Shown: one piece after another, positions 10,419 to 42,463 of the stretch
Position numbering within the stretch: position 1 is the first letter of the stretch
How the letters are laid out: every line of letters starts with the position of its first letter
Assembly (NCBI GenBank): GCA_029856145.1
Contig: JAHQWK010000009.1
Coordinates: 1-42,463, forward strand
Direction of reading: 5' to 3'
DNA: 42,463 bases
From: Promethearchaeia archaeon
GTDB lineage: Archaea; Asgardarchaeota; Lokiarchaeia; Sigyniarchaeales; SOKP01
Translations under genes and position numbers: made by a program
The notes under the pieces: generated by a model
The model's input: the letters and a program-made list of their open reading frames with translations, nothing else
What the model was told of the DNA's origin: nothing
Database searches by the model: none

Positions 10419-10592
10419 GGGCCATTTGCTTAGCTCTCATCTGAAGTTTCTCTGGATGACTGAAATGGTTAACAGGTTTGCAAGCTTGGTCAACAAGCGC
10501 AGGTCTTATAAATGACCGTCGGACATACAGCAAATAAATTTGTCCGAGAAAGTAAAAGCCTGAGATCCGGGGTTCAAATCCCCGATGGCCCA
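10419..10592 (+). tRNA. tRNA with three introns (10436-10465, 10472-10494, ~10511-10556); probable tRNA-Ile(TAT)
   Basis: Acceptor GGGCCAT/ATGGCCC+A; T-arm CGGGG-TTCAAAT-CCCCG; spliced D-arm GCTT-AGCTTGGTTA-AAGC; anticodon stem CAGGT/GCCTG with loop CT-TAT-AA; TTTATAA box ~25-30 nt upstream. Anticodon identity is less certain than tRNA status. Confidence 0.82.
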
Positions 10593-11527: not shown

Positions 11528-12892
11528 TTATTGAACTATTTGATTATACGCTTTTTCAAATCTCTCCACAGCAGAAACGATATCTTTTTCTGTTGCTCCA
11601 ATTGCAGCATTCATTACAATATAAGGAGTTGGATAATTACTACAACATGTCCCAAATGCATTTTCTTTTGGGTTATATACTCTTGGTCCTGTTACTCTTA
11701 AATTATATAATGCTCCACCAAGAGCATATAATTTTTCTTCTTTCATATTTTTTAATGATAGTGCTACTGCAACTGGATTATAAATATCGAGAATTCTTTC
11801 ATTTAATATTTCAGCAATTTCACTTAGTTTCGTTTCAAGAATTTTACGGTTTTTTTGTTGTTCCTCAATTAATTTCTGATAACCATTAATCCCAATTGAT
11901 AACATTGAAATTAAGAAATTCACAACTGGGGTGGCTGAGGCACGACCGGCGTATCCTTGGCTGATTTTTATTATATTTTCTTTTGAGGGGGAGGCAATTA
12001 CTGCTCCACCAACGGGTGTAAGAAAATTTTTATCTGTTGATTGAATAATAGCATCTACTCTTCCTGCATCGATTCCAGATCGAATTAATTTCATCCATTC
12101 TGGGCTTTGAACACCATATGCGTTTATAACGATATGGACAAGATTATTCTCTTGTGCAAATTTGCTTATTTCTTTAATATTATCATGTTCTCGAGGCGGA
12201 AAAAAGCTAGTAAGTGAGATGATCGCAAAACAGTCATCATCCAAATTATTTTTTATTTCCTCAACTGGAATTCTGACCGCATCCCCAAAAATCTGTCCTG
12301 GGACAATTTTTGCTTTAAAACCCATGAAATCAATCGATTTTAAAAGGGATTTATGATCGATTTGAGGAACTAAAACTGTTCTCTTATAATTTAAATTATC
12401 TTCACTCTGATCTTGTTTCAAAGCTCCTAAAGCTAAAGATAACGACATTCCTGTGCATACGGGTACTACAATTGCATCTTTTATGTTTGGTAATCCAGTA
12501 TTTCTCAATATGTTTCGAGCTAAATAGTTAGAAAGTTCATACATTATTGAAGCTCCAGGTGCTTTTGGCTGAGCGGCCGTTAAAAAACCACTTCTTCCTA
12601 CACCATGACAAAATCCCGCGGAAGTTCTTAAGTGTAATTTTGAAGCGATTCTCGCTTCTCTTTCACCTACTCTAGCGGCGCTATTATCTTTATCTGTATC
12701 CATATTTGAAAGAGTCTGGAGGAGGAACTCAATTTGTTCGTCAGTCCAAGGTTCAATAGGTACAGATCTTTGTTCAAAAAGGATTTTTATAGGTTTCAAG
12801 AACTCATTTAAAACAAGTTGACCTCTATTTAGCATATTTTCAGGAATATTCAACCTTTCAAAAAAATCTGTTATTTTATTAAAATCAACCAT
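11528..12892 (-). CDS. spcS: O-phosphoseryl-tRNA(Sec) selenium transferase (SepSecS)
   Basis: 'GEREARI', 'HGVGRSG..AAQPKAPG', 'QSTDKNFLTPVGG' (PLP lysine), 'YAGRAS'; ATG 12892 (or GTG 12901); directly downstream of tRNA-Sec. Confidence 0.96.
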   Translation of the reverse strand: MVDFNKITDFFERLNIPENMLNRGQLVLNEFLKPIKILFEQRSVPIEPWTDEQIEFLLQTLSNMDTDKDNSAARVGEREARIASKLHLRTSAGFCHGVGRSGFLTAAQPKAPGASIMYELSNYLARNILRNTGLPNIKDAIVVPVCTGMSLSLALGALKQDQSEDNLNYKRTVLVPQIDHKSLLKSIDFMGFKAKIVPGQIFGDAVRIPVEEIKNNLDDDCFAIISLTSFFPPREHDNIKEISKFAQENNLVHIVINAYGVQSPEWMKLIRSGIDAGRVDAIIQSTDKNFLTPVGGAVIASPSKENIIKISQGYAGRASATPVVNFLISMLSIGINGYQKLIEEQQKNRKILETKLSEIAEILNERILDIYNPVAVALSLKNMKEEKLYALGGALYNLRVTGPRVYNPKENAFGTCCSNYPTPYIVMNAAIGATEKDIVSAVERFEKAYNQIVQ

Positions 12893-12914
12893 AAAAAACA
12901 CTTTATGTATAATT

Positions 12915-13007
12915 TGGCGGCCCTCGAGGGGAATCGAACCCCTATCCCTCCGCAGGATAACTGGGTTTGAAGCCCAGTGTCAGAGACCACTCCAACCGTC
13001 AAGGGCC
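12915..13007 (-). tRNA. selC: tRNA-Sec(TCA), 9/4 fold, CCA encoded
   Basis: 9-bp acceptor GGCCCTTGA/TCGAGGGCC, 7-bp D-stem GTTGGAG/CTCTGAC, anticodon loop CT-TCA-AA, long variable arm, 4-bp T-stem GGGG/CCCC, G73-CCA. Confidence 0.96.
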
Positions 13008-30863: not shown

Positions 30864-31682
30864 TTATTTCTTTTCTGGTTCTTGTTCTTCATCTTCTTTA
30901 TCAGGAGTTAAAGAGATCTCGGAAATTTCTCCTTCATCTACCTCATCAATTAGTTTCTTATCATCTTTACTTAAAACTCCTTCTTCCTCTTCAAATACAT
31001 AATCTGCTCGTGTTTTTGCTAATTTTGCTTCCTCTTTTGCTTGAGCCTTTACTAGAAGATCATCCTTGATTTTAACACCATCTCCCATTTTTGTATTCGC
31101 ACGCATTATTTTCACAATTACTCCTAAAGTACCTGATTTCTGAATACATTGAGCAACACCTTTATCTACTCCTTCTTGGGCGGGTTGGCCACTCTTAGAC
31201 ATAACACCTGCACGAAAGATTTGAGTTCTTGCTCTTTGAGAAGTAACCTTTCCTGAGACGATAATCTCAACTCCACGTGCTCCTGCATCCATAACTTTTC
31301 TTAAAATATAATATCCTGCTCTTCTATAGTGGCGTCCCCTATCTAAACTATACGCCAATCTTTCTGCCATAATTTGAGCATCAAGGTCTGGCTCTGCAAC
31401 TTCTTCGACCTCAATCTGAGGCAATAGGCTTGAGATCTTAATTAGAACTCAATTTTCCAGCTCAAATTGTTCTTGAAGTACATCCGTTATCTCTTGAATA
31501 CGTTTACCACCTTTTCCAATTACCAAACCTGGGCGTGAAGTTCTTAATGTTATTCTTACTCCGAGTGGAGTACGTTGTAACTCTATTCCTGCAAATCCCG
31601 CACGAATTAATTCTGAGCGTAAGTATTCGTTTATTTGCATCAACTTAATCCCTTGTTCTATGAAATTTTTTACAAGCGGCAA
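30864..31682 (-). CDS. rps3: 30S ribosomal protein S3 (uS3), interrupted by a 30-nt insert (~31422-31451) containing an in-frame TGA
   Basis: 31449-31682 encodes the KH domain ('RPGLVIGKGG...FELEN'); 30864-31424 encodes 'PQIEVEEV..PDLDAQIMAERLA...GARGVEI'; both parts are in the same frame. Confidence 0.95.
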
Positions 31683-32329: not shown

Positions 32330-35300
32330 TTAAATAAGGAAATTAGACCTTGCAAACCTTACTAACTCGTCCCAACTATACCCTGTATAAGAAGTCAAAA
32401 ATCTATTTGCGTTCCTTTTCAATGAGTCTATTGGGTAATAATAATCTTCATGCAATCCTAAATCAATAACAAGTTTACCCATATTGTAATAATGTCTACT
32501 GCTTCCTAGCTCATGGATGTGATTACGCAATAATTCAATAGCTAATTCAAAATAGTTTTTAACAGGAATATTAAGTGCTTGAAATTTTAAATCTTTAAAG
32601 GAAACTCCAATAAAAGATTGTATATAAAAACTCCCCCGGCTTCTAAGTGTGCTCTCTGAAATCCCGAAAATTCTAGAAAATTCCAGATCTATTGATAGCT
32701 GTGAGGCACTATATCGAGTATTACGACTATTTTGCCTAATCAAGTCAATTGCACGATTATATAGTTCTTGATTCGTAGGTTTAGGAAAGACACTTTCTAC
32801 AACTTCTTCTATACCTTTGTTGAAGACTTTTCTAAATACATTGGCAATGTAATCATTCCGCTTCTTTAAGTTATTTCCGTATTGAGGTCTGTCAAATCCT
32901 TGTAATCTCTCTCTTAATGATTTATAATCTTTTATACCTAATCTAATCTGTTCCAAGAAAATAGTCTTATATATTTCAAGCCTTAAATCTTCAAATGACA
33001 TACTCTCCTTATATACATCATGATAGAGGGTGAAAAGGATAGATCTAATCATACTCTCAGAAGATTCTATTAATTTATCTAATCCTAACTTTAATGAAAT
33101 TGCATTTATATCATAGCCTTTCCTAAATAAATATTCTATTCTTGACAGAAACGGCTTAAGAACTTCATTACTAAACATTTCAGCGATTTGTATTCTAGAA
33201 AAACTTTTACCTAATTCGTTTAATACAGGGAAATAATACTTATCCCTTAATTTTTTGAAACTTCCAAAATTATTATTGATTATTTCCCTTAAAGACTTCA
33301 TTTTTCCTTTATATCCTAAAGATTTCAATGATTCAAAGATTTGACTTATAGTAAAACCTACAGAAGCACTTTTGATAATGAAGGATAAAAGATAGTTTGA
33401 AGTCCAAGCCCCTGCTGATTTATCTTCTTTATTTAACCCAACACCTTTACTTCTTTGCAGATGAATTCTGTCAATTTCAGCTTTAGATAGAGTATCTTCA
33501 GAAAAGTATAATTTCTTAAGTACAAACTCAAAACGAGTATCGATAGCAGTGTAAATTGCTCTCCAGTCTAACCTACGATAATCTACTCTCCCATTAGGCT
33601 TATATGAAATCAATCCTAAACTATCCAAGTGCTGACGAATTAACCCACGAATTGTTATTCCGCCTCCGTTTGGACCTCCACTCTTTATTTTATTAAAGTC
33701 CTCTATACTTAAGGAATGTAAAGCGTTATAATCCAAAAATTCATGAGAGTCTTTATAATAGAGATTTCGACCTTTAATTATTTTACGATTATATTGATTC
33801 TTTCTAATTGGGTGAGAAGTTCTTGACTTGCCAGACATTGTTAGCCCCGAAACCTTGTCTACCCATTCATAAAGGAACCCCCACCACTGATATTTTCGCT
33901 TCCCTTCAACACTAAGAATCTGAATTGTTTTTACTTTATCCAATATTTCTAAATCTACTTCATATTTAAGTATATCGTGATGCAGTCTGTCGTAGCCTAA
34001 TTCTCTTCTATTCTCATTTATTTCATTAAGATTTTTGGAAATTACTTTACTAGCAACTTTAGTAAGTCTTAATAATTGAGTTCTCTGGATACCATGGAAC
34101 ATTCTTAAATCTAAAAATAAATCTAGTGTCTCTTGCCAAGAATCTAATGTACCTAAAGACTTATAATTAAATTTTGACTTTGGATTAGTGTTAACCATTC
34201 CAATCGTTATAGGTGCAGCGGACAAGAATGGGGCAATAGCAGGAAATATGAAACCTATTACTCCAACGCCTATCGCTACGGCTGCTGTCATTAACCCTTT
34301 CTTATGGTCTCTCATCCAACTCACAAGTCTGTTTGTGTCACTCCTTGCGGCGTAAGTAGCTTCAGTAAATGCACGGGCGGTAGGAAGCGGCTTTTGAGAT
34401 TCTTGGAGTCTACTTGCCTGATATTGTAAATTATTAATGAAGTTAGTCATAGAGTGTCTTTGATTATCAGAAATCATAGATTGTGGGGCATTCATAATCC
34501 CTGCTTTCTGATGTCTTGATTCTAAAATACCTTTAACGGCATCCTTCAATTCAAATAGACTGTCAGCTGAATCACCGCCGACAATCATAAGATTTCCAAT
34601 AGTCATGCCGATTGACCCACCGAAACCACCCATTATAGCACCAATAAACATCATCACCGTGAAGAAGCTGTCAAGGATATAATCTTTCCGATTATCTTTT
34701 TGAATTTGAGCTTCTTGTGCTTGTTGCCTCATCTCATTCATCTGCTCTATGGTTAGTTGCTGCTGAGCAGCTATATTCTGAAGGTTCAGCGAAGTCTGGG
34801 GCCTCACACTTGCCCACATAAACTGAGTGACTGCGCTGAAAAGGAACTCACGCCCGGTCTCAGCAAGCCCACTGAGGTATATTTGTGCTGTCTCGTCCCA
34901 ACCAAGATCTGCTACCGCGTTGGTAACGTAGGCTTCAATCCAAGGGTCAACAAATACTTCTTGAATACTTTCAGAAATCAGCGCTTTCGTGATTTTAAAC
35001 ATGTTATATCCAAGACCTCTAGATGCGGGATTAAGAAGACTATTAAATAATTCTCCTGCATTCATATTATTATAAAGATTAGCTAGCCTTTTTCCAGCAG
35101 TCTCTGCTTGAATAGCATCATCTAGCTTATCAAATAGATTATTAGCTAATTTACTAAATGCTTTGTCAATTACAATCGTAGCGCCCATTACAATAAGAGT
35201 ACTAATAATAGTGACAAATATGGTGTAGCAAGCCTCGGAAAGTCTCTGTTGAGTCTGCTCCGCAATCATAAATTGATATGTGTATTCTAAGATCGCCTGA

Positions 35301-38300
35301 TGGGCAGATTGCATTGTAGCAATTGTATTAGCTTCTTCTAGTGTGATGTCGTCTCGCTCCACCGAAATATCCCTATATTTTTCTATGCAAAATTCGAGAA
35401 TAATATGACCTTCATACCCCTCAACATTGTTATATAGATCTTCCTTGCTAGCAAGACATTCATCTAAAAGTATTGTAAAACTAGAATTTAAAATTACTTC
35501 TCCTGTAATCGCATTAAAAATAAATTCCGGAATATAGTCAATGTCCAAAAGTGGAAGCTGATTTCCCAGTGAATCTACATAATAAGGCACGATATTCACG
35601 ATATCTGACATAATTAAGCGATTTGCCACAGTATCCTCGGGGATTAACTGTATGATATCTGTAGTGCCATTATAGACTTTGTAGATGTGATAATACTTAT
35701 CTTCTAAGTCCCCATATTCTTCGTGATCTACATAAATAGGATAGTCAAGGTAAAACTCTGGAGCTAAAACTGTATCAGAATCGATAAACTGTAATGAGGG
35801 TCTCACGCCAACCATGTATGGAATAAGGCGATCATATGAAATACTGTCTTCAGGATCGCTTTCAGTTGCCTTATAAATCTCATTTTCTAAGTACATAATG
35901 GAATTTTTCATGTAAAGAGCACGTGGATCACGGGGTTGAGTGAGACCTAAGTTATCTAATATTGGAAGTTGCTCAATAGATATTCCATAAAATTCCTCAA
36001 TATCTTGATTGAAGAATGACATCAACAGGGAATCATCAAAATCCGAATATTGCAGATAAGATCGTGTCTGCTGTGAATAATCTAATAATAGTGGGTTAAA
36101 TTGAGTGCCGAAAACGGTCGTCTTCTCGATATGAGCAGGGGCAAGAATAACCTCTCCCTCATATATATGTTTATCCGTCTCAGCTTTTACGGGAGTATAG
36201 ACTCCTGCTTTACTTCCTTGAAGTGTATTTGGCATGATATCGCCAAAATATCTATCCATCCACCACTTATCTGATAATGTTTCGATGTCTTGATATTCCT
36301 CGTTATAAGTGGTCTGAGAAGCTAAATAATTGTTGATCTCTTGTTGTTGGGCAATTGCCATAGCAGAGTTTAAAAGCCAATACATAATCATACCGACAAT
36401 AAAACCAATTGCAGTCCCGAAACCTGGCAACGCCGAGCCTATTGAAGTACATGCTCCTATTATACCAGCCAAGACTATTCCCGTGACCTTTCCAACTACA
36501 AAAGCCGTTAATTGTGAAACTACTTGCCATGCGATATCTCCAATGATTTTCTCAGCAGAAAGAGATTCTATAAATATTTGATGCGTAAGCCGCATTGCAA
36601 ACCTAATTAAATCACTGGACGTCCCTGTATATTGTGATTTCCAGATGTCAAATAAAGAATCTCTGAATGTAGGCTCTACAAACATGCCATCATAACTGTC
36701 AGTATCTTGATAATTAATTAATTTATGACCGGTATATTTTAATGCCATTTTCAAAGCTATGTCATCATCTGCGGTAGCCGCACTTGTAATAATATGTTTC
36801 TCCGTAATCATGACCTTATGAGGCTCAAAATAGGAGTTTCCGTCATAATCAAACCCGATTCCGACCACTTCACCATCAGAGTCGGCAATAAAGATCGTAC
36901 TGTGAATACCATCGCCATCTTCATCATAATAAAGATATCTATACCCTTCAAGGTTATCTGGAGCATACCCTCGGACGTTATCATAATATACTCCCGTTTC
37001 TGGAACCACCTCGATAACATCAGCGACAATCTTTTGCTCAGTTAAATAATCATTGATCCCTGTACCTTCATTATAAGTTGCAGGTATTGAAATAACTTTC
37101 TGAGTTGCTAAAATATTATCAAACTGAACAGAACCGTTAATTATAATTCTTCTATCAAATATAGCTGGAATTCCATCTCTAGGATGAGAAAGGGATAAAA
37201 GATTCTCAAGAGCAGGGACGTAGGTAATAACATCATTGGAACTATCCTCATCTCCATTATCATTTATAACTGGCACAAGATTATTGTCTAAGTTATATAC
37301 TTCCGATAGCTCATTTGGAAATACATCATCATAATATCTGGTGCTTACAACCTCGCCATACTCGAAATCTCTGAACGCATAGGACATACTTGAATCAGAA
37401 ATAATATATGTAGAATTCCTATATTCTGTTAAATATCCCTCATAATGATCAAGATCATCATTCAAGGGTGTGAAATGAATATGGGTAATTTCTGTGGAGT
37501 AAAGAACTGTATATGAGCTGTAAAAGGTCTGTTCATAAGATATTTCATGATCAATATATCCATCATAATCATCATCTTTCTGAATTAAAGTGATTAACTT
37601 TTGTATTCTATAAGTTATTGTACTGTTAGTGATGATAGTACGTTGTGCTGTCACTTTATAATCGGGATCTTTACTATCAATAGAGTATCTTTCAGTCTTT
37701 CTTACATCATTTACTTTATCAGTATGAACTTCTGTAGTTGCTACTTCTTGGACAAGCGTATGGAACGTAATTTCTCCCGCTGGGTTGATGTAGCCATACT
37801 TGAAAGAATCATAGACTCCATTCTGGGTTATATCATCTTTCTGGATAACGAGCTCATGGCTACAATCCTCATCATAATCAAAGAGTTCCAGTACTGTCTT
37901 TGGATCATTAACTTTTGTGAAATTATCGAAATCTTGATACTGTTCCATCTTATCTAATGAATAGGTCAGATCAACATTATCATCATCTACAAACTTACTA
38001 TTTCTCGTGTAAGTAAAATATTCAAACATAGAATCTTCAGAACCGACCGCATAATCTTCCATAAGGAGGAAGTAATCAATATCATTATATTCAAAGTCTA
38101 CATAGAGCGAATCATTCTTGGTCCATAATGGAACTTCAGGATTATTATTAATTGCTGCTTGTAAAAATCTAAATTGGGTATAATCTGAATATGCCCCTTC
38201 TGTGAAGTTAAGATAAACAATAATCTTCTCAAAATTATCTAATGTGTATCCATCTGGAGCTGAAATTTCGATTAATTTTTCACTTGAGTATATATTTGCA

Positions 38301-41300
38301 TTATCTGGATCAAAATCTTTCCCAGTTTCGTTGAAAAAGTACCCTTTAATCAGCATAATATCGAGGTCTTGGGCGTTAGAGTAGTCCTGTGATAAGGTGA
38401 AATTTGCAGTTTGAATATTTTTATCATATGGATATACAATCTCAACAGCTATATTTCTGGCTTCAAATTCACTAAGCGTCTGGTTATAATATACAGAATC
38501 GTACTCCTCTGAGGCATCGTCATACCACTCAAACATAATATCTAAGGTGCTGATATCAACATTTGGAGCTTCTATGGTGTGCCATTCTTTCCACGCGTTC
38601 TTATCTGCCCATGAAACGTAAAGATAGCTGAAGTTCGCAATATGGGGGTGATAATAGTCGTATAGATCAGTAAGGTCTTCTTTGTCCTCCGTATAGGCGT
38701 CATAATACTCTCCTGAATACATTAGGTTCCAAATAATATCATAAATTCCGGATGAAGTATTTATCGCAAAAAGATGAGAATCAAAATAATAATAATTGCC
38801 ATCATCATCAAATGCGTCAAAATACCACGTTTCATTAATATTAAACTTATCACTATATAGTGGCAAGAATTCAGTTGCATCTAAAGTTCTTACTTCGCTA
38901 TAAATATCAGTATAATCACCATAATAGAAAGTCTTAATATGATTATTTGGATAAATATCAAAAATCTCTGAATCGTACAATGTTGCATTATAATCAAATT
39001 CAAAAATAAAGAATGAATCAACAACTATTTGGTATCGTGGATCATTTGAAGTAATTAATATATCCGTAATATAACAATGTTCTATATTATTACTGTCTAA
39101 TATTTTGAAATCAGAATAGATATCATCAAAAGAAATATTAAATACTCTCTGTTGATAAGTATTATAAAATTCGCTTTCGAATGGTGTCAAGTCTAATTGA
39201 GTCTCCCATGCTACTAATTCTTCTCGGTTTGCATACATATCCTCCTCTATGGTATAGGAATTACCATCGGTATTAATTCCAATAAGTGAAATCTCGGCAA
39301 TCGGAACATCTGGCTGTCCAGTAAGATAATTATCAATATAAGGCGCTCTCTGAAGTACCATCTCATCGACAGTAAATCCAATCGCAGATTCCAATGTAGC
39401 ATTATATTTTAGATATAAGATATCGCCATCTTTCATGACCATTAGATTTCCATTAGGATCGATATAAGATCTTGGAAGGGAAATATTATTATACTCAACT
39501 GAATATGTCCTTCTATTATCATAAATCTCAAAAGATTGCCTTCGTGTATCTACTTCTGTAATCTCATATATGGGTTCATATAACTCATTCAGAACGATAA
39601 CACTCTGATTATCTGAAAAGATTCTTCTAATTAAATCAACATTGAGATATCCCCCCTCAGCATAGGCAGAGTCCCATTCAATAGTCTGAGTCGTTGGAAG
39701 TCCCTCTCCGTAAAAGTCTCCCAGAAAGTCGGTGTGATTGTTAAATATTGGAGTAAATACGATATGAGCATTATTGGCAATGGTAAATTGATCCCAATCA
39801 TTTGAATCAGGAAGTGAAATATACATTGTGCCTGAGTCATCCTCAAACATATCCAGTGTAACATTGGTAGATCCAATGAAAGTATCCTGATTGTAGTAGA
39901 GACTGACATTAAGATAGGAAAGTACATCAGGATTGAGGAAACCCATTTTCATGATCAACGTATCATATGATTGCCATCCGCTGGTTGCGTCATTAAGATC
40001 CTCAGTTATATAATAAATTAAGCTATTCGAATTATTTAATATCGCAAATATTTGCTGTACCTTGCCTTTGCTGAGAGCTTTATACGGATCAATATCATAA
40101 ATAAAGTGCGAAGATTCATAATTTGCCATTAAAGTATCTTCTGGAGATTGAGCAGTCGTCCAATTCAGAAGTGTTATATTGTTATTACCTAAGTCCACCC
40201 TTAGATCGTGGTAATATTGATATTTATTATGGAGATCGGCAAAAAGATCAACGAATAACTTTGTTCCGTGAACAATGTCATCATATGAAGAGATATCCAC
40301 CTTCAATTCCTTATCCTCAAAATCAATATGTTCATCAAGAATATACTCTCTTTCATCCGAACTATTATAGAAGAAGGCTACCACTATAGGAGTATTATCT
40401 GGATAGCTTTCTGGAGAATTTCTCTCTAAATTAAATTCAGCAATATCAGGAGTATCATCGGTCGTGTCCACTTCAAATTCAAATGAAAGAATGCTCTTTT
40501 CTTGCAACCTATAGTTTAATGCTAACTGATATTGATAATTCGCAGATAAGTTGTAATATAGAGGTGCTAAAATACTTGCCCCGCTGAAAGGGTAATAATT
40601 ATTGTAAAATTGCATGTGATATGGCTGTACTTCAATAAATACATGCTTGGTGTCAAGTAAACCGCCGATTGTTTTAAATTGGTAGGTAATAGAAAAATTA
40701 TCCCCGATACTTAAAGATTTATATATCGCGTCCGTGAACGTAATATTATTACCCTTAATGGAAGAAATATTACCAATGGTATTAATTATATCATTAGTAG
40801 CATTTTTTATGATCAATTCATATCCAGGACCATACAAAATATTATCATATTTCGTATAATAGCTTACACTTTCTTTATTGTAATAGTATGTGACTAATAC
40901 TTCTGAATCTTCTATAATATCAATATAATTTTCAAACCATTCATAAGACAGGTAGAAGGTAAAAATTGGGTCATTAGGATAGTTAGTATCATGTTGCCAC
41001 GCTTTAAAGTAGTTATTATCTAAATATCTTTCTCCTGCTTCAGTCTGAACAGTCATACCAAATGGTTCAACATCCCCCCATCTCTCTTGAAATTCTCCGC
41101 CATAAGTCAAATTAAGCGATACTTCATATTGGTCGTCATCAAATCCTGTAAACTCAAATGTAGTAAAGTTATATTCATTTGGATAGAATTGAAATTCTTC
41201 TGTATAGGTTGATTTAAAGTCGTCAACTGAAGCATACTCGCTCAAGTGAGCAAATGATACATTAAACGCAGCAGAACTTGTCAAATCAGGGTGATATTCG

Positions 41301-42463
41301 AATTGGTGCCAATTGAGATAAGAAGCATCTGGGAAGTTCCAATGAAGCTCTACATTATAAGTATTTGCCCCTTCTTCTATTGTATAATCGAGATCGGTAA
41401 ACTCATAATCAATATGGAAATCAATTTGGATAATATCACTTGAAAGTAGGGAAATAATATCATCTTTTATTTCATAGAAATTAATTTGATTACCTTCCAC
41501 TTCATAATGAGTTCCTTTAGCAAGTTTTATTGAGGAAGGATTGTAATTAATTGCATTATCAGGATTATAAGTACTATAATTATCTTCGGTTAACGCATAT
41601 CCTTGCCATGACTCAACCCAATCCCAGGGTTTACTCACCCTATCAACATTAGATACTGTTATGGAATTAATTCTACTTGTGGCATTTGGTATAACAACTG
41701 CAAACTCCACACCAGCAGGAAGTCCTGTAGTAATAATATCTTCTGAGTCGGTTAAATCAATTCTATGATGTAAGTACAGTTCTCCCTCTACATATGCCCC
41801 TTGGCTTGTGATTGGTAATTCAGTTAGTTTGAAATTTTCAGTATTATACAAATGAGCATTAAAAGAATCTACATCAACAGAATAATCATTATACTGCCAA
41901 TTCATATCATATTCTACATCAGATTCATAGACTTCTCCGTATGGATATGTACCCTTTCCTCCATAGAGGTTAATTTCCCCTTCAATATATTCTGGAAATT
42001 CTAAATCATAGGCATCTAAGTGAAATCCGAGGGAATCTACCAACCTATTATCTGCTGAAGCTAATGATTGGAAGCTGTACTCATTATTATCAACAGGAGC
42101 AAATACTAAGTTATCATTCTCATCTCGACATAATTGTACTAACTCACCGTAATCACTAAACCCTTCGACCGCAAGTGTTAGCCATGCATCATCATAGACT
42201 CCATATGCTTTATTTAGATTATCAGTAAAAATTTGTATATAATGAGTGTGAATGGCCTTATTAACATCTAATTCACCTTGCTTATTGTTCATTGGCTTGG
42301 ATACTGCTTGAAGAATTCTATCATCGGCAGTAAGTTCAAATGTATCAAAAAGGATATATTGAAGTGGATATGGGTTTTCTCCATAACTGAGAAAATCAAT
42401 TTCAAGATCTATTGTTGTATAACCCTTTACGGCATAGATAGGTTGTAAGCTAACTTCAAAGTC
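32330..42463 (-). CDS. Giant protein (at least 3377 aa, 5' truncated by window): acidic beta-rich body, DxDxDG loops, hydrophobic helices, C-terminal GIY-YIG-like nuclease/HTH region
   Basis: Frame stays open for 57 more codons upstream of the listed ATG (42292) to the window edge; motifs as described under findings. Confidence 0.85.
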   Translation of the reverse strand, partial: DFEVSLQPIYAVKGYTTIDLEIDFLSYGENPYPLQYILFDTFELTADDRILQAVSKPMNNKQGELDVNKAIHTHYIQIFTDNLNKAYGVYDDAWLTLAVEGFSDYGELVQLCRDENDNLVFAPVDNNEYSFQSLASADNRLVDSLGFHLDAYDLEFPEYIEGEINLYGGKGTYPYGEVYESDVEYDMNWQYNDYSVDVDSFNAHLYNTENFKLTELPITSQGAYVEGELYLHHRIDLTDSEDIITTGLPAGVEFAVVIPNATSRINSITVSNVDRVSKPWDWVESWQGYALTEDNYSTYNPDNAINYNPSSIKLAKGTHYEVEGNQINFYEIKDDIISLLSSDIIQIDFHIDYEFTDLDYTIEEGANTYNVELHWNFPDASYLNWHQFEYHPDLTSSAAFNVSFAHLSEYASVDDFKSTYTEEFQFYPNEYNFTTFEFTGFDDDQYEVSLNLTYGGEFQERWGDVEPFGMTVQTEAGERYLDNNYFKAWQHDTNYPNDPIFTFYLSYEWFENYIDIIEDSEVLVTYYYNKESVSYYTKYDNILYGPGYELIIKNATNDIINTIGNISSIKGNNITFTDAIYKSLSIGDNFSITYQFKTIGGLLDTKHVFIEVQPYHMQFYNNYYPFSGASILAPLYYNLSANYQYQLALNYRLQEKSILSFEFEVDTTDDTPDIAEFNLERNSPESYPDNTPIVVAFFYNSSDEREYILDEHIDFEDKELKVDISSYDDIVHGTKLFVDLFADLHNKYQYYHDLRVDLGNNNITLLNWTTAQSPEDTLMANYESSHFIYDIDPYKALSKGKVQQIFAILNNSNSLIYYITEDLNDATSGWQSYDTLIMKMGFLNPDVLSYLNVSLYYNQDTFIGSTNVTLDMFEDDSGTMYISLPDSNDWDQFTIANNAHIVFTPIFNNHTDFLGDFYGEGLPTTQTIEWDSAYAEGGYLNVDLIRRIFSDNQSVIVLNELYEPIYEITEVDTRRQSFEIYDNRRTYSVEYNNISLPRSYIDPNGNLMVMKDGDILYLKYNATLESAIGFTVDEMVLQRAPYIDNYLTGQPDVPIAEISLIGINTDGNSYTIEEDMYANREELVAWETQLDLTPFESEFYNTYQQRVFNISFDDIYSDFKILDSNNIEHCYITDILITSNDPRYQIVVDSFFIFEFDYNATLYDSEIFDIYPNNHIKTFYYGDYTDIYSEVRTLDATEFLPLYSDKFNINETWYFDAFDDDGNYYYFDSHLFAINTSSGIYDIIWNLMYSGEYYDAYTEDKEDLTDLYDYYHPHIANFSYLYVSWADKNAWKEWHTIEAPNVDISTLDIMFEWYDDASEEYDSVYYNQTLSEFEARNIAVEIVYPYDKNIQTANFTLSQDYSNAQDLDIMLIKGYFFNETGKDFDPDNANIYSSEKLIEISAPDGYTLDNFEKIIVYLNFTEGAYSDYTQFRFLQAAINNNPEVPLWTKNDSLYVDFEYNDIDYFLLMEDYAVGSEDSMFEYFTYTRNSKFVDDDNVDLTYSLDKMEQYQDFDNFTKVNDPKTVLELFDYDEDCSHELVIQKDDITQNGVYDSFKYGYINPAGEITFHTLVQEVATTEVHTDKVNDVRKTERYSIDSKDPDYKVTAQRTIITNSTITYRIQKLITLIQKDDDYDGYIDHEISYEQTFYSSYTVLYSTEITHIHFTPLNDDLDHYEGYLTEYRNSTYIISDSSMSYAFRDFEYGEVVSTRYYDDVFPNELSEVYNLDNNLVPVINDNGDEDSSNDVITYVPALENLLSLSHPRDGIPAIFDRRIIINGSVQFDNILATQKVISIPATYNEGTGINDYLTEQKIVADVIEVVPETGVYYDNVRGYAPDNLEGYRYLYYDEDGDGIHSTIFIADSDGEVVGIGFDYDGNSYFEPHKVMITEKHIITSAATADDDIALKMALKYTGHKLINYQDTDSYDGMFVEPTFRDSLFDIWKSQYTGTSSDLIRFAMRLTHQIFIESLSAEKIIGDIAWQVVSQLTAFVVGKVTGIVLAGIIGACTSIGSALPGFGTAIGFIVGMIMYWLLNSAMAIAQQQEINNYLASQTTYNEEYQDIETLSDKWWMDRYFGDIMPNTLQGSKAGVYTPVKAETDKHIYEGEVILAPAHIEKTTVFGTQFNPLLLDYSQQTRSYLQYSDFDDSLLMSFFNQDIEEFYGISIEQLPILDNLGLTQPRDPRALYMKNSIMYLENEIYKATESDPEDSISYDRLIPYMVGVRPSLQFIDSDTVLAPEFYLDYPIYVDHEEYGDLEDKYYHIYKVYNGTTDIIQLIPEDTVANRLIMSDIVNIVPYYVDSLGNQLPLLDIDYIPEFIFNAITGEVILNSSFTILLDECLASKEDLYNNVEGYEGHIILEFCIEKYRDISVERDDITLEEANTIATMQSAHQAILEYTYQFMIAEQTQQRLSEACYTIFVTIISTLIVMGATIVIDKAFSKLANNLFDKLDDAIQAETAGKRLANLYNNMNAGELFNSLLNPASRGLGYNMFKITKALISESIQEVFVDPWIEAYVTNAVADLGWDETAQIYLSGLAETGREFLFSAVTQFMWASVRPQTSLNLQNIAAQQQLTIEQMNEMRQQAQEAQIQKDNRKDYILDSFFTVMMFIGAIMGGFGGSIGMTIGNLMIVGGDSADSLFELKDAVKGILESRHQKAGIMNAPQSMISDNQRHSMTNFINNLQYQASRLQESQKPLPTARAFTEATYAARSDTNRLVSWMRDHKKGLMTAAVAIGVGVIGFIFPAIAPFLSAAPITIGMVNTNPKSKFNYKSLGTLDSWQETLDLFLDLRMFHGIQRTQLLRLTKVASKVISKNLNEINENRRELGYDRLHHDILKYEVDLEILDKVKTIQILSVEGKRKYQWWGFLYEWVDKVSGLTMSGKSRTSHPIRKNQYNRKIIKGRNLYYKDSHEFLDYNALHSLSIEDFNKIKSGGPNGGGITIRGLIRQHLDSLGLISYKPNGRVDYRRLDWRAIYTAIDTRFEFVLKKLYFSEDTLSKAEIDRIHLQRSKGVGLNKEDKSAGAWTSNYLLSFIIKSASVGFTISQIFESLKSLGYKGKMKSLREIINNNFGSFKKLRDKYYFPVLNELGKSFSRIQIAEMFSNEVLKPFLSRIEYLFRKGYDINAISLKLGLDKLIESSESMIRSILFTLYHDVYKESMSFEDLRLEIYKTIFLEQIRLGIKDYKSLRERLQGFDRPQYGNNLKKRNDYIANVFRKVFNKGIEEVVESVFPKPTNQELYNRAIDLIRQNSRNTRYSASQLSIDLEFSRIFGISESTLRSRGSFYIQSFIGVSFKDLKFQALNIPVKNYFELAIELLRNHIHELGSSRHYYNMGKLVIDLGLHEDYYYPIDSLKRNANRFLTSYTGYSWDELVRFARSNFLI

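Follow-up and report, generated by a model that had tools for sequence, protein, structure and literature searches.

How does an archaeon that reads AUA with a UAU anticodon keep from misreading AUG? The question is raised by a tRNA gene in a stretch of 42,463 nucleotides from a Promethearchaeia archaeon (Lokiarchaeia, Sigyniarchaeales, SOKP01; contig JAHQWK010000009.1 of assembly GCA_029856145.1), hereafter referred to as the window. The gene lies at positions 10419-10592 on the plus strand and, judged from its sequence, is the tRNA-Ile(UAU) gene of a Lokiarchaeia-type Asgard archaeon, its product being predicted to be charged accordingly and to read AUA and not AUG. It is interrupted by three introns, the third of which lies in the anticodon loop and contains a fold-back element ending in an ACA box; alignments of orthologous genes show that this element is conserved in its pairing, in its fixed spacing and in the ACA itself. 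The triple intron and its order of removal are ordinary and already known; what is new is the conserved element with its ACA in the intron of the anticodon loop.

The genome (3.55 Mb, 30% GC, 97% complete) devotes 3.5% of its codons to AUA. One of its ribosomal proteins groups for the most part with sequences annotated as Lokiarchaeota or Promethearchaeota, the source labels being mixed. TiaS was not found in this genome, in the 91 family genomes or in any genome of the same class that was searched, nor in Odinarchaeum, Atabeyarchaeia, Borrarchaeum and two further families, and it is present in most other Asgard families. No Ile(CAU) gene was found in the genome, in a tRNA inventory that is incomplete, as the initiator Met gene was likewise not found. 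The UAU strategy for AUA is known from Nanoarchaeum and Korarchaeum (PMC6000648). A Haloferax tRNA-Ile mutated to U34 gains 5-cyanomethyl-U, binds AUG and misreads it (PMC3895270), and the intron of the yeast tRNA-Ile(UAU) secures pseudouridine 34 and prevents Elp-type modification (PMC11408192).

Gene structure and family survey

The gene, delineated from its sequence and its orthologues, spans 174 nt, is reduced to 75 nt once spliced, and does not encode CCA. Exon 1 (10419-10435, tRNA positions 1-17), delimited with the help of the joined exons of relatives devoid of intron 1, is followed by the 30-nt intron 1 (10436-10465), inserted in the D loop at position 17/17a and displaying a central helix TTAG/CTGA, an intron-side stem TCATC/GATGA and a single base pair on the exon side. 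Exon 2, identified from the sequence, comprises only the six nucleotides TGGTTA (10466-10471, positions 17a-21). The 23-nt intron 2 (10472-10494) interrupts position 21/22 and forms the helices TGGT/GTCA and CAGGTT/AGCTTG. Exon 3 (10495-10511, positions 22-38) holds the anticodon UAU (10507-10509; isoleucine, reading AUA), and the 46-nt intron 3 (10512-10557) separates it from exon 4 (10558-10592, positions 39-73), assigned from the sequence and a folding model. The spliced tRNA is of class I, with 7/7 pairs in the acceptor stem and 5/5 in the T stem, an anticodon loop CU-UAU-AA, and A73. ARAGORN and Rfam scans both fail to detect the tRNA-Ile(UAU) gene at 10419-10592. A Leu(UAA) reading of the ambiguous intron 3 boundary was rejected: the variable loop is that of class I, and a separate class II Leu(UAA) gene is found elsewhere. 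The 3' half of intron 2 (10482-10492) nearly repeats the spliced D-loop sequence (10433-10435 plus 10466-10471), which suggests that this intron originated by local duplication.

The original prediction, made from the window alone, had proposed a tRNA with three introns and a micro-exon; all the exon and intron motifs that it claimed are present at their coordinates and the gene is indeed triple-intron, the UAU anticodon and the conserved intron 3 element having gone unmentioned. Orthologues of the three-intron gene occur in 34 of the 36 genus members, so that its arrangement is not due to chance. In the family set of 88 assembled copies of the tRNA-Ile(UAU) gene, intron 1 is carried by 20 copies and missing from 68, intron 2 is carried by 73 and missing from 15, and some copies bear variable-loop or T-loop introns, whereas intron 3 is kept in all 88 copies as the others come and go. 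Copies lacking intron 1 or intron 2 show exactly the predicted exon joins, which confirms the boundaries of both introns, and the UAU anticodon arm is found in 86 of the 91 family genomes. By these comparative standards, the gene and its three introns are real.

The ACA element of intron 3

After 0 or 2 nucleotides, intron 3 starts with a G-R-Y motif pairing to C32, U31 and G30 in each of the 88 copies. In the gene of the window, this guide-like strand is GACC (10514-10517), complementary to exon bases 29-32 (G29-C32, 10502-10505). At least three contiguous pairs are formed in 88/88 copies and the changes are all pair-keeping; 93.6% of the alignment cells are paired, with one-sided changes only (median p 0.97). 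The strand is followed by a 7-bp lower stem, formed by 10519-10525 with 10541-10547 and enclosing a variable A/U-rich loop, which exhibits compensatory changes in six of its seven pairs (0/500 shuffles as high). A single base after this stem comes the ACA box (10527-10529), located 13 nt downstream of the G paired to C32; across the family, ACA stands 12-14 nt beyond this G in 87 of the 88 copies, and ATA is found in the remaining one. An A as first base of the intron allows U33 to pair, which leaves a loop of exactly U34-A35-U36-A37, U34 (10507) being the proposed target of pseudouridylation. Folding predicts that the fold-back dominates over the anticodon stem in 73 of 84 distinct precursors, and that it excludes the intron 3 splice helix, whose 3' strand GTAA (10552-10555) pairs with U33-U36.

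Occurrence outside the family

Searches outside the family used patterns devoid of ACA. The covariance model R1 does contain ACA, and all but one of its matches were found again by the ACA-blind patterns; it reached other Lokiarchaeia (Loki) families and one other class, and missed Odin and Atabey. The 26 distinct non-Loki tRNA genes come from Odin, Atabey, Hermod, Borr, another Asgard family, Thermoprotei, Bathyarchaeota, Nanoarchaeota, Woesearchaeota and metagenome contigs. Their 37/38 intron comprises one base, 13 nt and then ACA in 24 cases, the two exceptions being Nanobdella, with ATA at 13, and one Nanoarchaeota gene with ACA at 14, while the chance per site of ACA at that offset is 0.005-0.04. 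In most non-Loki genes, the stem preceding the ACA has strand 20-26 of the same tRNA as its partner, with 84.9% of the cells paired and with compensatory changes (0/500 shuffles as high), in at least three Thermoprotei genes the partner is strand 39-45, and in Loki it is the intron's own strand, which makes three partner strands in all. The other Loki families have ACA at 13 in eight of 15 genes; in one more, the unit sits deeper within a longer intron, and the remaining genes are devoid of it.

ACA at that offset is found in 0/7 of the other anticodon introns of this genome, in 0 of about 20 CAU introns of TiaS-positive Asgard archaea (read by eye), and in none of the non-tRNA chance matches. 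TiaS was not found in any of the 12 other carriers tested, and Cbf5 is present in four of five distant carriers, two of these with genomes of 0.5-0.7 Mb. The sequences indicate that the carrier genes are probably homologous, in which case the element reflects conservation under divergence and not independent origins.

Several further observations concern related genes. The Loki gene L179 (G059:C102:5182-5265) has a 62-nt intron in which the unit of GACC, 13 nt and ACA lies within a longer hairpin, a topology that appears closer to classical H/ACA. The Loki-class UAU genes L139, L145, L175, L176 and L186 possess an intron without ACA at the usual offset. An intronless and divergent tRNA-Ile(UAU)-like gene (L031 / L181, G263:C1:387314) occurs in a TiaS-positive Asgard genome and may be borne by a mobile element or degenerate. 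A tRNA-like UAU arm with an insert, devoid of the ACA element, is found on a contig labelled Wallbacteria (L208, MGFH01000131.1:2585-2645). The CAU-tRNA anticodon introns of TiaS-positive Asgard archaea (L274-L285) share a recurring GGGC/GGCCAGA-like motif. Lastly, one Thermoprotei carrier encodes cbf5 in two pieces in different frames (G400:C21:21101-22073), like the known crenarchaeal cbf5 mRNA intron.

A proposed Cbf5 route to pseudouridine 34

The genome encodes Cbf5, Nop10, Elp3 and Pus10, together with a weak match to Gar1. In H/ACA particles, Cbf5 anchors on both adenines of the ACA and on the lower stem, and the distance to the target is fixed by the stacked 3' guide duplex, which matters most; where an ACA box accompanies an unpaired UVUN, two alternate pseudouridines are made (PMC7075261). 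Cbf5 also modifies U55 of tRNA without a guide, the acceptor stem and CCA replacing the lower stem and ACA, of which ACA is the better bound (PMC2018633).

Covariation and folding models show that, before splicing, the anticodon arm refolds, the 5' end of intron 3 pairing with positions 29-32 and stacking on the 7-bp stem. The resulting stack of 13 nt plus ACA has the size of an H/ACA lower stem with its 3' guide duplex, or of a minihelix made up of T arm, acceptor stem and CCA: five, seven and one nucleotides precede the ACA, and U33 and U34 would occupy the places of U54 and U55. We propose that Cbf5, with Nop10 and Gar1, would use the ACA as its anchor and make pseudouridine of U34, which is the second loop base like U55, and possibly of U36 as well. 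By extension from the yeast and Haloferax data, pseudouridine 34 would pre-empt Elp3-type modification of U34 and the misreading of AUG. Intron 2 can sequester strand 39-43, the likely route being the removal of intron 1, of intron 2 and, last, of intron 3; the splicing motifs and the gene content suggest that a two-subunit EndA endonuclease would cut all three introns and that RtcB would join the exons. We consider it probable that pseudouridine 34 is made by Cbf5 under the direction of the intron 3 element. Confidence and doubt are evenly balanced for the wider proposal, namely that UAU-reading archaea of the DPANN, the TACK and several Asgard classes would share an intron-encoded, cis-acting Cbf5 module by which pseudouridine 34 (and 36) is made ahead of splicing. 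This module would be the RNA-encoded equivalent, and perhaps the forerunner, of the eukaryotic Pus1 route, with intron 2 co-opted in Lokiarchaeia to keep the anticodon stem open.

In H/ACA terms, the element has a lower stem followed by an ACA/ANA box, and a 3' guide pairing 5' of the target U, formed with 28/29-32. The spacing amounts to 13 nt to the C32 pair, or to 14 when the base facing U33 is counted, for an H/ACA norm of 14-16. Several points weigh against a Cbf5 substrate of this kind. No conserved upper stem with a kink-turn (K-turn) or K-loop and no 5' guide occur in alignments A1 and A3, nor is there any Rfam match, and the element is not a standard guide. The guide duplex, with 3-5 bp in Loki, is shorter than usual, and the 13 nt to the last firm pair are one short of the usual range. 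A strict ruler would designate U33 as the target, unless U33 pairs or stacks with the opposite base, and a standard pair is formed there in some lineages only. Pus10 is an alternative enzyme. Seven of the 15 Loki genes outside the family are devoid of ACA at the usual offset, the sample outside Loki is confined to one anticodon-stem sequence, kin are not independent, and the folding models take no account of proteins or tertiary structure and give a wrong fold for the D arm of the mature tRNA. Action in trans as a separate RNA does not fit the element either: in the genes outside Loki, the lower stem forms only with the tRNA body as partner, which also rules out, for these genes, that the excised circular intron serves as a classical trans guide. 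Because the upper stem, the K-turn, the 5' guide and trans action are all wanting, the element is not classed as an H/ACA small RNA (sRNA); to judge from its sequence features, it functions in the manner of the lower half of such a guide, joined directly to the RNA on which it acts.

How do other explanations fare? A pseudo-tRNA or an assembly artefact would agree with the failure of ARAGORN and Rfam and with the U31-G39 wobble of the gene at 10419-10592, but it is scarcely credible for exons that are conserved in 86 of 91 family genomes and for the sole AUA-type reader found in a genome with this AUA usage and no TiaS found. The antisense stretch and the ACA could also be neutral relics of the origin of one ancestral intron, inherited or transferred with the gene. 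A single origin is likely and several Loki genes are devoid of the element, yet the 13 nt diverge widely in sequence while their length, their pairing and the ACA persist across DPANN, TACK and Asgard archaea, and the stem has three different partners, all of which renders a neutral relic very improbable.

Two further explanations grant the fold-back a role. It might direct the modification of U34 (or U33/U36) by an enzyme other than Cbf5, either Pus10, through mimicry of the T arm and acceptor stem, or another wobble-modifying enzyme. The geometry does mimic these two helices, with U33-A37 spaced like U54-A58, no K-turn is available for L7Ae, and the Pus10 encoded by the genome is the usual archaeal U54/U55 enzyme (PMC11077068). 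We nevertheless hold this to be quite unlikely, as an internal ANA with a tolerated ATA is the signature of the Cbf5 PUA domain (PMC7075261) and as Cbf5 is present in four of the five distant carriers examined, two genomes of 0.5-0.7 Mb included. Alternatively, the fold-back would merely delay splicing, or shield U34 from Elp3 and other enzymes, with U34 left unmodified and the ACA binding a protein without catalysis. Mycoplasma mobile reportedly provides a bacterial case of this kind, decoding AUA by means of a UAU anticodon with an unmodified U34, and the predicted dominance of the fold over the splice helix is what a delay would call for. However, a delay needs no fixed 13-nt ruler ending in ACA, and shielding stops at intron removal in a genome where Elp3 is present, so that we regard this explanation as decidedly unlikely.

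Splicing motifs and order of removal

All three introns exhibit a 4-bp central helix with 3-nt bulges, conserved or covarying. That of intron 1 is fully paired (4/4) in 19 of 20 copies, and that of intron 3, in the 38/39 register, is TTAT/GTAA, kept by one-sided changes. The 37/38 register was rejected for intron 3 of this gene, with at most 1/4 central pairs compared with 4/4 at 38/39; it would lead to the same product, and orthologues with a canonical 37/38 motif yield an identical anticodon loop. A strict two-sided bulge-helix-bulge (BHB) motif is not formed, since introns 1 and 3 are devoid of a contiguous exon-side helix, and the motifs are relaxed ones. The intron 3 motif, called a poor BHB in the original prediction, is better than that, having its 4-bp central helix at 38/39 even without a contiguous exon-side helix.

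The genome encodes two EndA subunits and an RtcB ligase. In the catalytic EndA subunit, the specificity loop with its KPR can be aligned to that of the Aeropyrum enzyme, a loop that has a role in the broad-specificity crenarchaeal enzymes (PMC12397907), and EndA of this broad type tolerates relaxed motifs (PMC4090602). The exon-side helix is not complete at intron 1 or at intron 3, so that the enzyme must be able to work without one. The broad-specificity endonuclease that had been anticipated is borne out by this two-subunit form with its KPR loop, which also answers the question of the EndA subunit type, and a spliceable multi-intron tRNA is supported by the predicted joins in relatives together with EndA and RtcB. 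Multi-intron tRNAs had been described as characteristic of Thermoproteales; the host is an Asgard archaeon, and such genes are common there (PMC11291895; bioRxiv 10.64898/2026.10.13.758758).

It had further been claimed that intron 1 must leave before intron 2, the outer GCU/AGC helix of intron 2 becoming contiguous only after the loss of intron 1. This is true for the present sequence, but the exon-side helix is complete in 32 and incomplete in 41 of the 73 intron-2 orthologues, and in 10 of the 20 intron-1 carriers it is incomplete even with intron 1 removed. In the folding model, motif 2 costs 11.9 kcal/mol to form with intron 1 in place and 10.3 kcal/mol once it is removed, a gain of only about 1.6, and the central and inner helices of motif 2 can form with intron 1 present. 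Introns 1 and 3, moreover, need no such helix, and this type of enzyme accepts relaxed motifs (PMC4090602). An obligatory order finds support in U10466, the first base of exon 2, by which the motifs of introns 1 and 2 overlap, in the folding of the full precursor, where only the intron 1 helix is populated (p 0.40-0.46, and 0 for introns 2 and 3), and in the nested dependence known among archaeal introns (PMC3978253). A strictly obligatory order set by the exon-side helix, which is compatible with the Cbf5 explanation, remains rather unlikely on balance. A preferred, not strictly obligatory order 1, 2, 3 appears plausible from the modelling, intron 1 being a plausible first because, of the three splice helices, only its own is populated before any splicing.

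The 5' part of intron 2 (10473-10479) provides 7 bp of complementarity to 10556-10562, which covers the 3' splice site of intron 3 and strand 39-43, and this pairing has a probability of 0.96-0.99 in the modelled full precursor. Over 53 distinct introns, the complementarity to strand 39-43 and this splice site has a median shuffle p of 0.005. Covariation at position 39 points in the same direction: the opposite base is C only with G39 (11/11) and never with A39 (50 copies), through about three changes on the gene tree. By this pairing, intron 2 may keep the anticodon stem from closing, and the constraint favours the removal of intron 3 last. Given the 15 copies without intron 2, this constraint is best read as auxiliary.

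Comparison with known systems

A box C/D guide is nested in the intron of archaeal pre-tRNA-Trp (Clouet d'Orval 2001; Singh 2004; as reported in PMC11408192 and PMC4090602), and in both systems the anticodon intron would carry the signal for modifying its own position 34. The present element differs in being of ACA-box type (for pseudouridine, not 2'-O-methylation), far shorter, partly made up of the tRNA body and apparently cis-acting. The H/ACA sRNAs Sso1 and sR115, which direct pseudouridine 35 in pre-tRNA-Tyr (PMC2651775, PMC11077068), share with the proposed mechanism the use of the Cbf5 machinery on the anticodon of a precursor that still has its intron, the lower stem, the ACA and a ruler of about 14 nt. 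In contrast with the element described here, whose target would be U34, they are separate trans-acting RNAs with a K-turn and two guide strands. The guide-independent action of Cbf5 on U55 offers the same two stacked helices, 13 nt, a CCA or ACA anchor for the PUA domain and the second loop U as target (PMC2018633); here, however, the mimic would be formed between the intron and the anticodon strand, with an ACA inside the RNA as the anchor, and the loop has 4-8 nt.

The intron-dependent pseudouridines 34 and 36 made by Pus1 in eukaryotes concern the same tRNA, the same intron region and the same proposed outcome and purpose (PMC11408192, PMC4090602, PMC9602550), except that eukaryotes use a stand-alone enzyme of the TruA family where an RNA-encoded ACA signal is proposed here. 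Among archaea, the tRNA-Ile(UAU) of Nanoarchaeum equitans, Korarchaeum cryptofilum and ARMAN have the same anticodon, and Korarchaeum and ARMAN-2 are also reported to have an intron there (PMC6000648, PMC12397907). The accounts consulted present rare species-level gains and report no intron element, whereas the element is class-wide here and can be traced across many lineages. As for the introns themselves, the presence of several of BHB type, the D-arm introns that scanners miss and the order effects are common ground with the nested multi-intron archaeal pre-tRNAs (Sugahara 2007; Tocchini-Valentini 2009; as summarized in PMC3978253) and the intron-rich Asgard tRNAs (PMC11291895; bioRxiv 10.64898/2026.10.13.758758). 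Compared with these, the triple intron is nothing essentially different, and the covarying pairing between intron 2 and strand 39-43 is an addition. No report of an ACA element in such an intron was found in the open-access literature.

Other features of the window

On the minus strand, rps3 contains a 30-nt insert with an in-frame stop (approximately 31420-31449), the removal of which restores the LEMPQ junction seen in relatives. A different 30-nt hairpin insert occupies the same rps3 site in genome G359, and rps3 is split near this site in genomes G021, G265 and G017. The sequences support the assignment of this insert as a BHB-type mRNA intron. Three further features lie on the minus strand. 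SepSecS directly adjoins tRNA-Sec (11528-13007). A tRNA-Ser(GGA) gene (2036-2166) has introns at 37/38 and in the T loop, and the one in the anticodon loop is devoid of the ACA element. Near the contig end, an open reading frame encodes at least 3320 residues (32330-42292).

Significance

The reading of AUA by a UAU anticodon without TiaS and without misreading of AUG is unexplained in the accessible literature, and the intron 3 element offers a concrete and testable answer. If the proposal is true, it would explain why intron 3 persists in all the family copies, some of which have lost or never had the introns next to it. A tRNA intron would thereby acquire a defined function, and Cbf5 would be seen acting on a minimal, self-guiding substrate. 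The decoding of AUA in Asgard archaea would then be linked to the eukaryotic solution.
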